Shown: in pieces, positions 3,684 through 21,331 of the stretch
Position numbering within the stretch: the stretch's first letter is position 1
How the letters are laid out: every line of letters begins with the position of its first letter
IMG/VR virus record: IMGVR_UViG_2698536533_000006
Direction: 5' to 3' (one strand)
Length of the DNA stretch: 32,602 bases
Source: a virus
Lineage: Duplodnaviria > Heunggongvirae > Uroviricota > Caudoviricetes
Made by a program: the position numbers and the translations under genes
Notes under the pieces: model-generated
Seen by the model: the letters and a program-made list of their open reading frames with translations, nothing else
What the model was told of the DNA's origin: nothing
The model's database searches: none

Positions 3684-3988
3684 AATAAAAAAATAACCCG
3701 AGGGGTGACTCAGGTTATTTGAGGTTTCAGTCTCNNNNNNNNNNNNNNNNNNNNNNNNNNNNNNNNNNNNNNNNNNNNNNNNNNNNNNNNNNNNNNNNNN
3801 NNNNNNNNNNNNNNNNNNNNNNNNNNNNNNNNNNNNNNNNNNNNNNNNNNNNNNNNNNNNNNNNNNNNNNNNNNNNNNNNNNNNNNNNNNNNNNNNNNNN
3901 NNNNNNNNNNNNNNNNNNNNNNNNNNNNNNNNNNNNNNNNNNNNNNNNNNNNNNNNNNNNNNNNNNNNNNNNNNNNNNNNNNNNNNNN

Positions 3989-5197: not shown

Positions 5198-5479
5198 GTG
5201 AAAAAAAATCTCATTGCATGGGCGTGGTCGAGTGGTCTTATTGAGTTTGGTTACGTCCTGCCGGAAGGTGCATTGCCGATAGTTGCCGGAAAGCCTGCCA
5301 CGGTACGGCATGTGATTGAGGTTATGGCGCGTCATGGACGTGATGAACAGGAGCAGTTACTGGTTCCGGGGATACCGGAAGCGGTGACGGAGGAAGAAGC
5401 CTTTAATGCCATGATTCGGTTCTGCCGTGAGGTTAGACGCCGGGTCAGTTATCCAAACAGAACGAGGACCAGAGGATGA
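5198..5479 (+). CDS. Small early hypothetical protein (93 aa, GTG start)
   Basis: GTG start 1 nt after the previous stop, preceded by GGGAGGTG. Confidence 0.45.
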   Translation: MKKNLIAWAWSSGLIEFGYVLPEGALPIVAGKPATVRHVIEVMARHGRDEQEQLLVPGIPEAVTEEEAFNAMIRFCREVRRRVSYPNRTRTRG

Positions 5480-5748
5480 GTAAAGTCGTACGCATTATTT
5501 TCGAATACAAGGAAGATGTTATCTGCAAAAACTCTGATGGCAGCACGCACAGAGGGGTAAGTCTGGATATACGTTCAACCGGAATAAAGAAGAAAGATAA
5601 TGGACCCGCCATGATTTTTGGGGTGGTTATGCTGGCAGAAAGCAGAAACTTCGCAGAGTTTGTGGCAATGAAAGCCAGTGCATTCATGAAAGACAGAGGC
5701 ATGGCTTCCGGGGTTATTAACGGTAATGAATTTAATCAACAGGGGTAA
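5476..5748 (+). CDS. Small early hypothetical protein, paralog A (MSKVVRIIFEY...)
   Basis: ATG overlaps the upstream stop; N-terminus and an AEF-x-A-x-x-AS-F segment are shared with the next gene. Confidence 0.5.
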   Translation: MSKVVRIIFEYKEDVICKNSDGSTHRGVSLDIRSTGIKKKDNGPAMIFGVVMLAESRNFAEFVAMKASAFMKDRGMASGVINGNEFNQQG

Positions 5749-5752
5749 TTCC

Positions 5753-6046
5753 ATGAGCAAAGTACGCGTTATTTTTGAATTTAATCATGTTTCGCATGAC
5801 GAAAAGTTGGCAGGCAATGACTGTGTTGAAGTGCATGAAAAGATTGGAGTGGATGTGAAAACAGAACGTGATACGGATAACAGGCCGACGTCACTCTGTG
5901 ACGTTTATGCAAGTATTCTCCAGTATCACAGTCCTGCAATTATTCAGTTTCTCTCAGCGGAATTTCAGGCATCTGCACAGTCTTTTGGAGCGGATGCCAT
6001 CATTAAACGCCACCGCGTGCATAAAGCATCAGGCACACTGCAATAA
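5753..6046 (+). CDS. Small early hypothetical protein, paralog B (MSKVRVIFEF...)
   Basis: ATG at 5753 with AGGGG RBS; N-terminal similarity to the 5476 gene. Confidence 0.5.
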   Translation: MSKVRVIFEFNHVSHDEKLAGNDCVEVHEKIGVDVKTERDTDNRPTSLCDVYASILQYHSPAIIQFLSAEFQASAQSFGADAIIKRHRVHKASGTLQ

Positions 6047-6733: not shown

Positions 6734-6914
6734 ATGATTGATGCAAAAGTGCTTGAAGGGGTTAAAAACTGGCTGTGTATTTATGGCCGCCTGACCTGCG
6801 GTGTACTGGCTGAAAAAATGAATATGCCGCCATCCTCCATGGTTTATTTTCTGCGTGATGCGGTTGATGCAGGCGTGCTGACGGAATGTAACGGTTTTTA
6901 TGATATTCCGCGTC
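6734..6914 (+). CDS. Hypothetical protein, N-terminal part (runs into N run 6915-7209)
   Basis: ORF beginning MIDAKVLEGVKNWL... with RBS GGTGGGGAAA; the C-terminus is not visible. Confidence 0.4.
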
Positions 6915-7238
6915 NNNNNNNNNNNNNNNNNNNNNNNNNNNNNNNNNNNNNNNNNNNNNNNNNNNNNNNNNNNNNNNNNNNNNNNNNNNNNNNNNNNNNN
7001 NNNNNNNNNNNNNNNNNNNNNNNNNNNNNNNNNNNNNNNNNNNNNNNNNNNNNNNNNNNNNNNNNNNNNNNNNNNNNNNNNNNNNNNNNNNNNNNNNNNN
7101 NNNNNNNNNNNNNNNNNNNNNNNNNNNNNNNNNNNNNNNNNNNNNNNNNNNNNNNNNNNNNNNNNNNNNNNNNNNNNNNNNNNNNNNNNNNNNNNNNNNN
7201 NNNNNNNNNCTGCCGGGATATCTGCGGAGGTGGCGTAA

Positions 7239-7753
7239 TGTTCTTTAAAACATCAAACCCTTCCGCGCTGGCTGCGTGGCAAAAATACCAGCAGGACTGC
7301 CAGAAAGTTAAGGATGAGGCAAAACGCCTTGAGGCCGTGCTGAATGTTGCGTGCCGGTCGGTATTTGTATCCGGTATCAGTGGATTTTACTTTAAGGGAC
7401 TGCGTTTTACGGAGGACAAATATCCTTTTCATCGCGACTTATGGCGAAAACCGACTGCGTCGAATGGCTGGAGCTGCACACCGCGCACATCACGTATCCC
7501 TAAAACCCTGCGTGTTGCCTCTGATGAACTGAACAGTCTGTGGCGTGAATATTCGCCCGTCACGTATGCCAGAACCGATGCGCTGTTGTTCTGGTTGGGT
7601 ATTGATTTCTCGGCAATCCTGTTTGGCCCTGTGAAGTGGTTCTGCGTTGACGATGTGATTTACCTTCAGTGCGGCGTAAAACCCGCAAAACAGAAAATGA
7701 CCGAAATACTGTCTGATGAGTTTTATGCTGCTGAAAAGCGAGTCAGGGGGTGA
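7239..7753 (+). CDS. Hypothetical early protein (171 aa)
   Basis: ATG at 7239 preceded by GGAGGTGG; an upstream frame ends with TAA at 7236-7238 (TAATG coupling). Confidence 0.5.
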
Positions 7754-7756
7754 TGC

Positions 7757-8308
7757 ATGATGAAATTACAACCCATGGGACTAAAAGGTCGCGCCCCCGC
7801 TCATGTCCGTCCGTGGACACCTGAAGAAGATGCGCTGCTGATTGCGCTTTATTCATCCACCCCGGTTAAGGATATTGCTGCCAGAATAAAAAGAACTGTC
7901 TGGGCTGTATATAACCGGACTGGTGTATTGCGCAGTTCATACCCGGAGTTACTGAAATATAAACACCCAAGATTTACACCTGATGAAGATAAGTTTATTC
8001 GAAAAAATGCCAGAACAATGACCTGCCAGCAAATGGGAGAATATCTCGGACGTAATAAAGATTCTGTCAGATGTCGGGCAGGAATGATTGGTGCTGGATT
8101 AACAAAGTGCGGAGAGTTACGCCCCGGCACGCGCATATCTGATGATGATGTACGTCTTATACGTGAGCTGCGTGATTCCGATTACCCACGCCGTCTGTCA
8201 TTCCGGGAAATTGGCGAAAAGTTTGGAATATCTGAACATTCTGCTCACGCAGTTTATTACCGTCGCCGGACTGCCGAGGACGCTGTATTACGGGAGTTAA
8301 CGCCATGA
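7757..8308 (+). CDS. Hypothetical DNA-binding protein with three internal HTH-like repeats
   Basis: 183 aa with three similar segments: WTPEEDALLIALY..., FTPDEDKFIRKNA..., ISDDDVRLIRELR...; lower GC than the phage average. Confidence 0.5.
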   Translation: MMKLQPMGLKGRAPAHVRPWTPEEDALLIALYSSTPVKDIAARIKRTVWAVYNRTGVLRSSYPELLKYKHPRFTPDEDKFIRKNARTMTCQQMGEYLGRNKDSVRCRAGMIGAGLTKCGELRPGTRISDDDVRLIRELRDSDYPRRLSFREIGEKFGISEHSAHAVYYRRRTAEDAVLRELTP

Positions 8309-8637
8309 TAACGACCTTATTTGTTGAATCAGATGAACCTCTTGTGTGTGCCGCCGGAATGCCGCTCTGTGGCGGAACGCTGACCGGCGTTTATTTCGGG
8401 GATTTGCGCGGTTATCCCTGGCATTCACTGGATGACGCATTTCCGCCTGATATGGAGGCTGTCGTGCTGATTGTTCAGTATGGTGACCAACAGGAACTGC
8501 GCATCGGCCATATGGGGTATGAAGGCTTTTTTATTGATGAAGAAACCGGAGCCTGCCTTGAAGATGAGGACGGACAGGTGACGCACTGGTGCCATCTTTC
8601 GGCCTTGCCGGAATTACAGGGGATACATAATGGATGA
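8305..8637 (+). CDS. Hypothetical phage protein, DUF551-like C-terminus
   Basis: 110 aa; C-terminal VTHWCHLSALPE resembles the DUF551 signature as I recall it. Confidence 0.5.
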   Translation: MITTLFVESDEPLVCAAGMPLCGGTLTGVYFGDLRGYPWHSLDDAFPPDMEAVVLIVQYGDQQELRIGHMGYEGFFIDEETGACLEDEDGQVTHWCHLSALPELQGIHNG

Positions 8638-8773
8638 GCAAATTGTTGAATGTCCCACCTGTGGAAATGAGGACCCGGAGTATCTGAAAGAGTGCCCACA
8701 TTGTGGTGAGATAAAATGTAACCACTGCGATATGGGCGACGACACTGCATGTATAAATTGTGAGGATGAATAA
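8630..8773 (+). CDS. Zinc-ribbon micro-protein (47 aa, four CxxC motifs); absent from the ORF track
   Basis: My translation: MDEQIVECPTCGNEDPEYLKECPHCGEIKCNHCDMGDDTACINCEDE; CAGGGG about 7 nt upstream of the ATG; stop TAA at 8771-8773. Confidence 0.45.
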   Translation: MDEQIVECPTCGNEDPEYLKECPHCGEIKCNHCDMGDDTACINCEDE

Positions 8774-8774
8774 T

Positions 8775-9062
8775 ATGGAAAAAGAAATCAAATTTGCGCC
8801 TAAATCTATCGACGAAGAACTGGCTAAAATCGGCATGCTTGAACGTATGCGGGACATTATCGAATATGCGATAAAAGAAAATCTTGCAGCCAGAGAAGCC
8901 CTTTTGATAATGGAGCGGGAGATTAACCTGATTAAGGATGCTGTATCTCTGGATAATAAAATAGCCCGCGAGGAATACGTTCGCCGTAGGCTCGGTGTTG
9001 ATGGTTCAGCAATTCTTACATCTGAACATTATGCAAAAATTTTTAATCTTTTTCAGCGGTAA
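8775..9062 (+). CDS. Hypothetical protein (96 aa) in a low-GC segment
   Basis: ATG at 8775 two nt after the zinc-ribbon stop; protein MEKEIKFAPKSIDEELAKIG...; local GC is visibly lower than the flanking phage genes. Confidence 0.5.
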   Translation: MEKEIKFAPKSIDEELAKIGMLERMRDIIEYAIKENLAAREALLIMEREINLIKDAVSLDNKIAREEYVRRRLGVDGSAILTSEHYAKIFNLFQR

Positions 9063-9282
9063 TCCCCATACAGGCCCGGAGATTGTCGAAATGCCAGTCG
9101 GTATTAATATATGAGCCATCCTGGATATCTTCTGCATTTTCCGGGGTAGAGTTTTTTTGAGCGAGATTGATAATATGTATTGCCTCCTCACGGGAAATCA
9201 GCCCCTTATCGAACAGGGTTACCATAAGATTTCCAGCCATTGTGAATGCGGCAACATCAAGTGCATTTTTTATATCTGACAT
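9043..9282 (-). CDS. Hypothetical protein (79 aa), convergent with the early operon
   Basis: Minus-strand ORF with RBS AAGGAAAAA 5 nt upstream of its ATG; 3' end overlaps the 8775..9062 gene by 20 nt; low GC. Confidence 0.45.
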   Translation of the reverse strand: MSDIKNALDVAAFTMAGNLMVTLFDKGLISREEAIHIINLAQKNSTPENAEDIQDGSYINTDWHFDNLRACMGITAEKD

Positions 9283-9310: not shown

Positions 9311-9338
9311 GGCGGTGCGGTAACACCGCCCATTTTTT
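9311..9338 (+). terminator. Rho-independent terminator-like hairpin upstream of the GemA-like gene
   Basis: GGCGGTG (9311-9317), loop CGGTAA, CACCGCC (9324-9330), then CATTTTTTAT. Confidence 0.45.
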
Positions 9339-9935: not shown

Positions 9936-10358
9936 ATGGCTGAAACACAGATGAGCATGTTTGGTGACAGCGAACAGCTGCACGCGCTGATTGACCGTCT
10001 GGATGATATTCCTGATGATGAGCTGAAAAAGAACTGGCCCGGCACGCTGCGGGACCTGGTTGATGTGATCAGTGCTGAACTGCACCGTCAGGGGATTGAA
10101 CCTGCTCAGGCGGGAATGCTTGCCCGTAAGGTTGCAGCCGCACAGGCCGGGTACATGGGCGGGCGTGGTTATTATCTCCCGGTCGGTGAATCCCTTTTCA
10201 CCGAACTGCGCAATAATGAAATTTTTTCCCGCTGGAGCCAGGGCGAAAAAATTGAAACCCTGCGCCGCCACTACCAGATGTCAGAGACGCAGATTTACTC
10301 CGTTATCCGCAACCAGCGTCGCCTGCATCAGGAACGCACGCAGCCACGGCTTTTCTGA
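9936..10358 (+). CDS. Mor/C-family transcriptional activator
   Basis: 140 aa; strong RBS GGAGG; acidic N-terminus and C-terminal HTH-like region (IETLRRHYQMSETQIYSVIRNQRRL) resembling Mu Mor and C. Confidence 0.75.
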   Translation: MAETQMSMFGDSEQLHALIDRLDDIPDDELKKNWPGTLRDLVDVISAELHRQGIEPAQAGMLARKVAAAQAGYMGGRGYYLPVGESLFTELRNNEIFSRWSQGEKIETLRRHYQMSETQIYSVIRNQRRLHQERTQPRLF

Positions 10359-16504: not shown

Positions 16505-17832
16505 TTTAGGTTATGCCGCCACGCTTCCCTCAAAAGAGACGGTGGCATACTTCCGCGCCAAAGGGGCGCATATCAGCTGGAACTGGTTCGAAACAGACGC
16601 GGATGTTCATGCCCGCTCATTCACGGCAGCAAAAACGGCACGGCTGGATGTGGTAACCACATTACAGGCCGAAGTGCAGCGGGCCATTGATGAGGGGATT
16701 TCACAGAAAGAATTTATCCGCACACTGACGCCACGCCTGCAAAAGCTGGGATGGTGGGGAAAGCAGATTGTGGTGGACAGCGACGGTAACGCGGAAGAAG
16801 TGCAGCAGGGCAGTCCCCGTCGTCTGGCGCTGATTTACAACGTGAACACCCGTGTGGCTTACAATGCCGGGCGTTACACGCAGATGATGAACAACACGGA
16901 CACGCATCCGTTCTGGCAGTATGTGGCGGTCATGGACAGCCGTACCCGCCNNNNNNNNNNNNNNNNNNNNNNNNNNNNNNNNNNNNNNNNNNNNNNNNNN
17001 NNNNNNNNNNNNNNNNNNNNNNNNNNNNNNNNNNNNNNNNNNNNNNNNNNNNNNNNNNNNNNNNNNNNNNNNNNNNNNNNNNNNNNNNNNNNNNNNNNNN
17101 NNNNNNNNNNNNNNNNNNNNNNNNNNNNNNNNNNNNNNNNNNNNNNNNNNNNNNNNNNNNNNNNNNNNNNNNNNNNNNNNNNNNNNNNNNNNNNNNNNNN
17201 NNNNNGGCGCCAGAACCATGACACCGGATGTGGGCTGGTCATATAACCCCGGCTCGGCAGCGTTCGGCACAGACCAGGCGCTGATCCGCAAACTGATCGA
17301 GGTGAAAAGCCCGGCGTTACGGGAAATGGTGGTTCAGGAGATGAACAACAGCCCGGAGCGGCAGCTGGCGTTCCGCATCTGGGCAAAAAACATCATGCAG
17401 ACCCGGCGAGGTGGTAACGATATCCGCACGCTGGGCTTTATGACTGAAAGCATTGCGCAGGCAGTGGAAAGCCGGACGGGAACGCCACCGGCCCGCCTGC
17501 TGGCGATGAGCGGTAAAAATGTGCTCCATGCGGACAGTGTGAAACATCAGAATGACGGCATCGCTCTGACGCCGGAGGACTTCGGGCGCTTACCGGCAAT
17601 GCTGGCAAGGCCAAAAGCGGTACTGTGGGACAAACGGCACAACAATCTGATGTATATCGTGGAAAATCAGGATGGCAGTGTGCAGATTGCCGTTAATGCA
17701 CCGTACAGTCTGAAACGTCAGCCCGACAAACTGGATGTGATTGTGAATGCTTACCGGGTTATCAATATGGATAAGCTGAAATCGGATATCCGGGGCGGAA
17801 TGCTTGAGGTGCTGGAAGGACAAATTGATTAA
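16488..17832 (+). CDS. Head morphogenesis protein (Mu F / gp30-like), interrupted by N run 16951-17205
   Basis: Open frames on both sides of the gap with combined size near Mu gp30. Frame continuity across the gap cannot be verified. Confidence 0.6.
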
Positions 17833-21058: not shown

Positions 21059-21331
21059 NNNNNNNNNNNNNNNNNNNNNNNNNNNNNNNNNNNNNNNNNN
21101 NNNNNNNNNNNNNNNNNNNNNNNNNNNNNNNNNNNNNNNNNNNNNNNNNNNNNNNNNNNNNNNNNNNNNNNNNNNNNNNNNNNNNNNNNNNNNNNNNNNN
21201 NNNNNNNNNNNNNNNNNNNNNNNNNNNNNNNNNNNNNNNNNNNNNNNNNNNNNNNNNNNNNNNNNNNNNNNNNNNNNNNNNNNNNNNNNNNNNNNNNNNN
21301 NNNNNNNNNNNNNNNNNNNNNNNNNNNNNNN

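Follow-up and report, generated by a model that had tools for sequence, protein, structure and literature searches.

A predicted DNA-binding protein with three helix-turn-helix domains, remotely related to phage T5 D5, in the early operon of a Mu-like Escherichia coli prophage

What is the role of a small protein made of three helix-turn-helix (HTH) units in the early region of a temperate phage? The question is raised by an open reading frame (ORF) at positions 7757-8308 of the IMG/VR virus record IMGVR_UViG_2698536533_000006, a stretch of 32,602 nucleotides which is referred to as a whole as the window and which represents a Mu-like prophage of Escherichia coli. An earlier note, made from the sequence of the window alone, had proposed that this gene encodes a DNA-binding modulator of host or phage transcription. 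The triple-HTH protein is a member of PHROG_323 and belongs structurally to the Myb/SANT/GcrA-like trihelical class of HTH proteins, and its only characterised relative is the protein D5 of phage T5. By analogy with D5, it is probably an accessory early factor which binds double-stranded DNA and acts on steps of transcription or replication, a reading that we hold with some reserve.

7757..8308, + strand: coding sequence of the triple-HTH protein, 183 amino acids plus stop; from the ORF list, with a RefSeq coding sequence at the same position in a 100% identical E. coli prophage

The ORF opens with ATG-ATG and has exactly the ends given in the earlier note (7757-8308, + strand), and its product is identical to WP_000977059.1, which carries the RefSeq name 'SANT/Myb-like DNA-binding domain-containing protein'. 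Full-length homologues number 43, with lengths of 169-216 residues and identities down to 31%, and none is disrupted. Compared with two prophage variants whose product is 71-72% identical, the ratio of nonsynonymous to synonymous substitution rates (dN/dS) is 0.27-0.28, at a dS of about 0.6. The gene is under purifying selection, and its three-unit architecture of 180 amino acids is kept across 31-99% identity. As the earlier note had presupposed, the ORF is thus conserved as coding in its relatives.

The protein can be divided into an N-terminal arm and three HTH units, as follows.

7757..7807, + strand: N-terminal arm, amino acids 1-17, conserved and predicted to be disordered; family consensus MIL.PMG.PGKCPAHVRAW
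7808..7960, + strand: HTH unit 1, amino acids 18-68, a Myb/SANT-like three-helix bundle (WTPEEDALLIALY...) that aligns with c-Myb R2
7961..8116, + strand: HTH unit 2, amino acids 69-120, a Myb-like three-helix bundle (FTPDEDKFIRKNA...) that aligns with c-Myb R3
8117..8305, + strand: HTH unit 3, amino acids 121-183, a divergent HTH (ISDDDVRLIRELRD...LSFREIGEKFGIS...) with a fourth, C-terminal helix

The three units quoted in the earlier note begin at W20, F73 and I127, with a period of 53-54 amino acids. When the sequence is taken alone, the similarity of the units exceeds chance only weakly (z scores of 2.7, 1.1 and 2.5 in Smith-Waterman alignments, from 2000 shuffles), and values of only 1.1-2.7 standard deviations above the shuffles would in themselves be compatible with a chance resemblance in a non-functional ORF. 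Such a chance origin is nevertheless excluded by the unit-to-unit comparison of profiles, with probabilities of 84-99%, by the prediction of three confident three-helix bundles, by the dN/dS of 0.27, and by the 11,538 matches at E <= 1e-3 that the family search returned from the representative library. With the 43-sequence family alignment, hhalign matches unit 1 to unit 2 at 98.9% (E 1e-17), unit 2 to unit 3 at 90.3% (E 1.4e-6) and unit 1 to unit 3 at 84% (E 7.5e-6). When only 19 close homologues were used, units 1 and 2 matched at 98% and unit 3 had no significant match, which was resolved by the more diverse alignment of 43 sequences reaching down to 31% identity.

The AlphaFold2 model built on the family alignment (mean predicted local distance difference test score, pLDDT, 84.3) is all-helical, without beta strands, and consists of three separate three-helix bundles with equal helix lengths and a period of 53-54 residues. 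The helices span residues 22-31, 37-43 and 48-59 in unit 1, 75-84, 90-97 and 101-110 in unit 2, and 129-140, 149-156 and 160-169 in unit 3, which is followed by the fourth, C-terminal helix at 173-181. The predicted template modelling score (pTM) of 0.55 means that the mutual placement of the domains is not defined by the model. Residues 1-15 have a pLDDT below 50; the N-terminal motif is nonetheless retained throughout the 43-sequence family, with L4, G11 and H16 invariant and P6 at least 90% conserved (alignment A1). The earlier note's description of a 183-amino-acid protein of three HTH-like repeats is therefore confirmed, both by the family profiles and by a predicted structure in which all three units adopt trihelical HTH folds.

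Units 1 and 2 are a true duplicated tandem pair of Myb-like domains, and unit 3 is a divergent HTH of another flavour. In a comparison with PDB sequences, residues 19-109 of the family profile fall in register with R2R3 of c-Myb (60-150, E 3.5e-6) and B-Myb (9-99, E 1.7e-4). In common with Myb R2R3 proteins (c-Myb, B-Myb, WER; PF00249, PF13921), units 1 and 2 start helix 1 with (W/F)T.EED and consist of a Myb/SANT-like three-helix bundle in which helices 2 and 3 form the HTH; the period of the units is 53 amino acids and the tandem spacing of Myb R2R3 about 52 residues. Myb repeats have three regularly spaced tryptophans, whereas only the first is kept here (W20, invariant); its equivalent in unit 2 is F73, and the other core positions are aliphatic. 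Furthermore, Myb R2R3 is eukaryotic, while the present protein is encoded by a bacteriophage and has a third, non-Myb-like HTH added to the pair. The suggestion in the earlier note that the units are alike and resemble Myb/SANT or sigma region 4 is thus to be amended, in that a true Myb-like tandem is formed by units 1 and 2 only and unit 3 is a divergent HTH.

The match to individual Pfam families is weak for the protein itself, with 19.7 bits for Myb_DNA-binding (PF00249; cut-off 24.4), 16.5 for PF13921 (22.9), 18.8 for HTH_AsnC-type (27), 18.7 for HTH_10 (23.1) and 12.2 for Sigma70_r4 (24.1). An orthologue with 46% identity (P0024) reaches 34.5 and 32.4 bits for the two Myb families, both over the cut-offs. 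Residues 73-108 of unit 2 match phrog_14101, 'transcriptional regulator', at E 1.3e-8, and the Pfam matches of unit 3 are all sub-threshold (HTH_AsnC-type, HTH_10, HTH_38 and Sigma70_r4). A Foldseek search against predicted viral structures gave 27 matches at E <= 0.001, among them 'Myb-like domain-containing protein', 'AsnC family protein', endonucleases and regulators of many phages. In NCBIfam no family was found for the protein, and the sole match among its 6 neighbours was CD3324_fam on Mor, far below threshold. The protein is basic, with a pI of 9.9 overall and of 9.6, 9.6 and 8.4 for units 1 to 3. Classical SANT-type domains have a protein-binding role; the basic pI of the whole favours the DNA-binding use of the fold, as in Myb, over this protein-binding use.

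Other HTH classes resemble the protein in part. With the DNA-binding domain of Caulobacter GcrA (PDB 5yiu) the likeness is structural and confined to that domain, and the C-terminal sigma70-binding domain of GcrA (PF07750) is absent here, as is any Pfam GcrA match. The repeat unit of the widespread bacterial multi-repeat proteins does match Pfam GcrA; the number of units is one in GcrA, three in the present protein and 5-10 in these multi-repeat relatives. The Lrp/AsnC family shares only the sub-threshold match of unit 3 to the AsnC-type HTH (18.8 bits against 27), and its C-terminal RAM/ACT-like alpha-beta effector domain is missing, with no room for it in the all-helical model. Three memberships were accordingly ruled out: the sigma-70 family (Sigma70_r4 at 12.2 bits against 24.1, no other sigma regions), Lrp/AsnC (no RAM domain, all-helical model) and orthology with GcrA (no Pfam GcrA match, no C-terminal domain). 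Sister alleles whose proteins are 72-74% identical are named 'AsnC family protein' or 'hypothetical protein' in RefSeq; the former name was carried over from a weak HTH match and is a misleading misnomer.

The repeat unit related to that of the present family is very common, and many of the 11,538 representative proteins carry 5-10 tandem copies. Units of the pattern WT.EED...EIA..LGRT..AV..RA..LGL occur in 3-10 head-to-tail copies in proteins of 300-1570 amino acids (P0028, P0031, P0040 and P0081 of the representative library), and Pfam assigns them a mixture of Sigma70_r4_2, HTH_23, Myb and GcrA matches. In P0031 they are fused to an N-terminal domain which was read by eye as a putative helicase/ATPase. 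Among phage proteins, a role as transcription factors has been proposed for Myb-type HTH proteins of jumbo phages, which are related to Firmicute RsfA (Iyer et al., 2021; PMC7824862); these are likewise phage-encoded, but belong to other phages and hosts, and they are likened to the present protein by description only. A literature search found nothing on Myb-like proteins in Mu-like prophages.

The link to a protein of known function comes from PHROG_323, 'transcriptional regulator, D5-like'. Residues 2-182 of the triple-HTH protein match positions 80-256 of this 319-position profile at E 5.3e-53 (181.6 bits), and T5 D5 itself (T5.118, YP_006946.1, 255 amino acids) matches it at E 1.2e-71. 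When the family alignment is compared directly with D5, hhalign returns 96.5% (E 8.2e-10) over 148 columns, pairing residues 17-171 with D5 70-232 so that all three units are covered; unit 3 aligns with D5 residues of about 190-232. In the annotation of the T5 record, D5 binds DNA, is needed both for DNA replication and for late transcription, and takes part in shutoff; its gene lies between the ligase gene and that of D6, a DnaB-like helicase. D5 is characterised in a 2026 preprint as a DNA-binding HTH protein which is toxic alone and triggers the type IX retron-Kva2, and by that account D5 mimics the winged-helix protein of the retron on the multicopy single-stranded DNA, msDNA (bioRxiv 10.64898/2026.07.11.737809). 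Both D5 and the protein studied here are early-expressed, helical, HTH-based phage proteins encoded beside replication genes. The T5 DNA-binding trigger of the DRT4 paper was set aside as irrelevant, being ORF55 and not D5. Given the RefSeq name and PHROG_323, the triple-HTH family is already catalogued and is thus less novel than the earlier note implied.

Where the gene is found is equally informative about its possible role. Orthologues occur in two unrelated groups of temperate phages, the Mu-like prophages of E. coli and Salmonella and the P2-like prophages (Peduoviridae). At Mu-like loci the order is Gam (or DUF3164), DUF5420 (missing at some loci), Gp11_C, Mu Gp12, the triple-HTH gene, a gene of 108/110 amino acids and, further on, GemA and Mor; the position just upstream of GemA-like and Mor-like genes is kept in a distant Mu-like element whose MuA identity is only 45%. 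At P2-like loci the gene follows a Dam-type D12 methyltransferase, usually with a small ORF in between, and precedes the replication endonuclease gpA. The methyltransferase (MethyltransfD12) is consistently within about 1 kb upstream (loci L043-L045 and L091-L111), and gpA follows directly or within about 2.5 kb, at some loci 1-2 kb further downstream. The early strand carries the gene in all of these contexts, always near replication or switch genes. These recurring contexts point to an exchangeable accessory cistron that is always placed late in the early operon, beside replication or switch genes.

Beyond these two niches the gene is rare. A tblastn search of 50,697 phage records at E <= 1e-5 gave matches in 13 records only, which we take to mean that Mu and P2, both presumably among the records searched, lack a detectable homologue. 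A scan of genome contigs returned only distant Myb-repeat proteins (Sphingomonads, Verrucomicrobia and others) and no orthologues. The N-terminal half of gp103 of Mycobacterium phage Thibault, annotated as 'HNH endonuclease', is 35% identical to units 1-2 (E 2e-7). At this locus (L116, 1000-2801), gp103 lies between two fragments annotated 'DNA methylase', gp102 and gp105, which has the look of an inserted homing endonuclease whose target would be recognised by a tandem Myb-like module. DNA recognition is plausibly the only role of the module of units 1-2 in such an enzyme.

E. coli strain 600029 carries a chromosomal prophage that matches positions 7400-8700 of the window with 100% identity, and a related stretch is present in 232 of 5,426 complete E. 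coli genomes. In RefSeq, the order of genes in the identical prophage is repressor, Ner-like HTH, Mu transposase, MuB-like ATPase, small ORFs, Gam, 2 hypotheticals, the triple-HTH gene, more small genes, gp16/GemA, Mor, lysozyme and late genes. Its place between gam and gemA/mor puts the triple-HTH gene in the variable stretch of the early operon, which in Mu is termed 'semi-essential'. The placement in a phage early region, which the earlier note had assumed, is hence supported by the RefSeq gene order together with the contexts of the relatives. Two signals mark the borders of the gene.

7745..7750, + strand: Shine-Dalgarno-like AGGGGG, 6 nucleotides 5' of the ATG of the triple-HTH gene, read directly from the sequence
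8305..8308, + strand: ATGA overlap of the stop of the triple-HTH gene with the start of the downstream gene of 110 amino acids, from the sequence and the ORF list

The TGA stop of the upstream gene (7751-7753) lies between AGGGGG and the ATG, 4 nucleotides short of the start codon. The ATGA arrangement is also found in E. coli and Salmonella relatives and may reflect translational coupling with the 110-amino-acid gene. A scan of the + strand from gam to about 9311 for promoters and terminators found no such signal above chance and none specific to the gene; as no such signal separates it from its neighbours, the triple-HTH gene is read as one cistron of the early operon.

The gene is part of a mosaic. 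Between E. coli prophage variants it is 79% identical in nucleotides, in contrast to 92-95% for the genes on either side. Compared with L003 and L004, both it and mor (9936-10358) are divergence islands of about 78-79%, while the intervening and flanking genes are 92-98% identical. The first three loci had hinted at a linkage of the alleles of the triple-HTH gene and Mor, and the later survey extended to 40 viral-contig loci. Co-variation was rejected, since L068, L072 and L073 pair a 73-75% allele of the triple-HTH gene with a 96-100% Mor allele; over the 40 loci the alleles are unlinked, and thus represent independent recombination patches and not a co-evolving pair.

In base composition, the gene (GC 0.473; GC at third codon positions, GC3, 0.375) is lower than the late genes (GC 0.52-0.60, GC3 0.54-0.67) and the conserved early genes A, B, gam, gemA and mor (GC 0.525-0.568), so that the lower GC than in core genes reported in the earlier note is borne out. 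However, the neighbouring accessory early ORFs are equally low (0.40-0.51, with 0.40-0.44 for those at 8630-9282 and 5476-6046), and low GC is a property of the whole variable early segment and not of the triple-HTH gene alone. The separate acquisition which the earlier note deduced from GC is therefore better supported by mosaic exchange, i.e. by the 79% against 92-95% nucleotide identity and by the orthologues in the unrelated P2-like phages.

How, then, might the protein act? It is small (21 kDa), basic and monomer-sized, carries three HTH domains on short linkers, and is encoded in the early (lytic) operon of a Mu-like prophage; it probably binds double-stranded DNA. Successive major grooves would each receive the third helix of one unit, units 1 and 2 as in Myb R2R3 and unit 3 as an added contact, and the conserved basic N-terminal arm may make extra contacts, either by lying in a groove or by binding a partner. 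The protein would then be an accessory early factor that would, by the D5 analogy, damp early or host transcription, aid replication and the switch to middle/late expression, or both. The DNA-binding modulator of transcription proposed in the earlier note hence remains a conditional reading, and D5 has links with replication besides those with late transcription and early shutoff.

Several observations weigh against this proposal. No DNA target could be predicted for the triple-HTH protein, and it is below the Pfam gathering score for every HTH family. In Foldseek the whole model had no match in the PDB at E <= 0.001, which is attributed to the flexible linkage of the domains as 'beads on a string' (pTM 0.55). 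The similarity to T5 D5 is remote, with 28% identity over the columns aligned by hhalign. D5 has about 70 extra N-terminal residues that are absent here, and its aligned part is without the MIL.PMG.PGKCPAH motif, whereas the present protein has its own conserved arm of 17 residues. D5 is, moreover, essential in a virulent phage, whereas the present gene is accessory; the apparent lack of a Mu or P2 homologue implies that the gene is dispensable for those life cycles. Finally, as its allele does not co-vary with that of Mor, no partner is indicated.

The protein could also be a factor directed at RNA polymerase, with sigma region 4-like or GcrA-like units that bind the host enzyme (at the beta-flap or sigma70) instead of, or besides, DNA and thus redirect or shut off host transcription. 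The weak Sigma70_r4 match (12.2 bits, and 24.9 against the cut-off of 24.1 in the orthologue P0024), the effect of T5 D5 on transcription class switching, and an N-terminal peptide that is conserved yet disordered, and so could be a docking motif, are in line with it. We nevertheless consider this unlikely, because the likeness to Sigma70_r4 is generic for HTHs, with the same units matching dozens of HTH families, the sigma-interacting C-terminal domain of GcrA is absent and Pfam GcrA unmatched, and neither sigma region 2 nor 3 is present. It is very unlikely that the gene is a relic or a free-standing DNA-recognition module of a homing endonuclease or selfish element, which would now compete at a homing site or give immunity there: the protein is wholly helical, with no nuclease domain or remnant, its 180-amino-acid three-unit architecture is conserved at 31-99% identity under purifying selection, which argues for a function of its own, and its operon position is stable and not sporadic. 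These points outweigh the 35% identity between units 1-2 and the N-terminal halves of HNH endonucleases which, in mycobacteriophages, interrupt a methylase gene, the matches to phrog_1891, 'HNH endonuclease' (E 0.0077, and 6.6e-6 for the Citrobacter orthologue), the divergence island of 79% in flanks of 92-95%, and the Dam-type methylase that is always adjacent in P2-like phages.

A gene engaged in conflict, for example a moron-type gene for superinfection exclusion or anti-defence, or one whose product is a trigger sensed by the host, would have no role in the gene expression of its own phage. This would fit the location in a variable, low-GC accessory early segment, the absence from Mu and P2 inferred from tblastn, the swapping of alleles between prophages, the retron-triggering activity of the relative D5, and the weak matches of the multi-repeat HTH relative P0081 to PHROGs of Ren-like exclusion proteins. 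On the other hand, PADLOC-DB gave no match at E <= 0.01 for the protein or six neighbouring ORFs, the gene is placed for expression with the lytic early operon and not in a moron cassette that is expressed in lysogeny and has a promoter and terminator of its own, and recognition by a retron is a disadvantage rather than a function. A conflict gene therefore seems improbable, and an accessory early factor that binds double-stranded DNA is still the reading we prefer. A far-reaching extension of the latter, to which we would give little credence, would unite the D5-like triple-HTH proteins of T5-like, Mu-like and P2-like phages in one class across lineages. By coating or bridging DNA, its members would shut off the transcription of early or host genes and permit replication and late expression; the conserved, disordered MIL.PMG.PGKCPAH motif of the temperate branch would dock a host partner, and recognition by type IX retrons, as for D5, would make the rapid turnover of alleles a form of escape.

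The surroundings of the gene in the window show several further features. Five runs of masked N positions are present (1330-1457, 3735-3988, 6915-7209, 16951-17205 and 21059-21331), and the run at 6915-7209 joins two real genes, one Gp11_C-like (177 amino acids) and one of the Mu Gp12 family (171 amino acids), into an apparent ORF of 339 amino acids (6734-7753, + strand). Downstream, a 47-amino-acid ORF at 8630-8773 (+ strand) has 8 cysteines arranged as four CxxC pairs (MDEQIVECPTCG...CPHCG...CNHC...CINC) and is zinc-ribbon-like. Its start overlaps the end of the 110-amino-acid gene and its end is overlapped by the following ORF (from 8760); the region is without RefSeq annotation (L002 10239-10375). 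All 8 cysteines are kept, at 72-96% identity, at other Mu-like loci and also in L090, a divergent viral contig of the Mu-like type. An ORF of 79 amino acids at 9043-9282 (- strand; GC 0.42), a RefSeq hypothetical, lies antisense inside the early operon. Immediately before gemA, a strong terminator-like hairpin, GGCGGTG...CACCGCC with a T-rich tail (9311-9330, + strand), could be the end of the early transcript or the edge of an inserted cassette. In E. coli 2012EL-2448, IS1A is inserted in the corresponding prophage region just upstream of gemA (L003 4936-5633), which indicates that this segment tolerates disruption.

The triple-HTH gene is a fairly ordinary accessory early gene of a phage family that is already catalogued, and the general picture is unchanged, because multi-HTH early proteins are abundant in phages. 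What is new is the profile-based link to T5 D5 and the definition of two conserved genomic niches. The link provides a concrete hypothesis, namely that the protein would bind double-stranded DNA, affect early shutoff, replication or the late switch, and possibly be toxic and trigger retrons. Mu-like prophages are frequent in pathogenic E. coli and Salmonella, and the triple-HTH gene is a further accessory member of their semi-essential early region.
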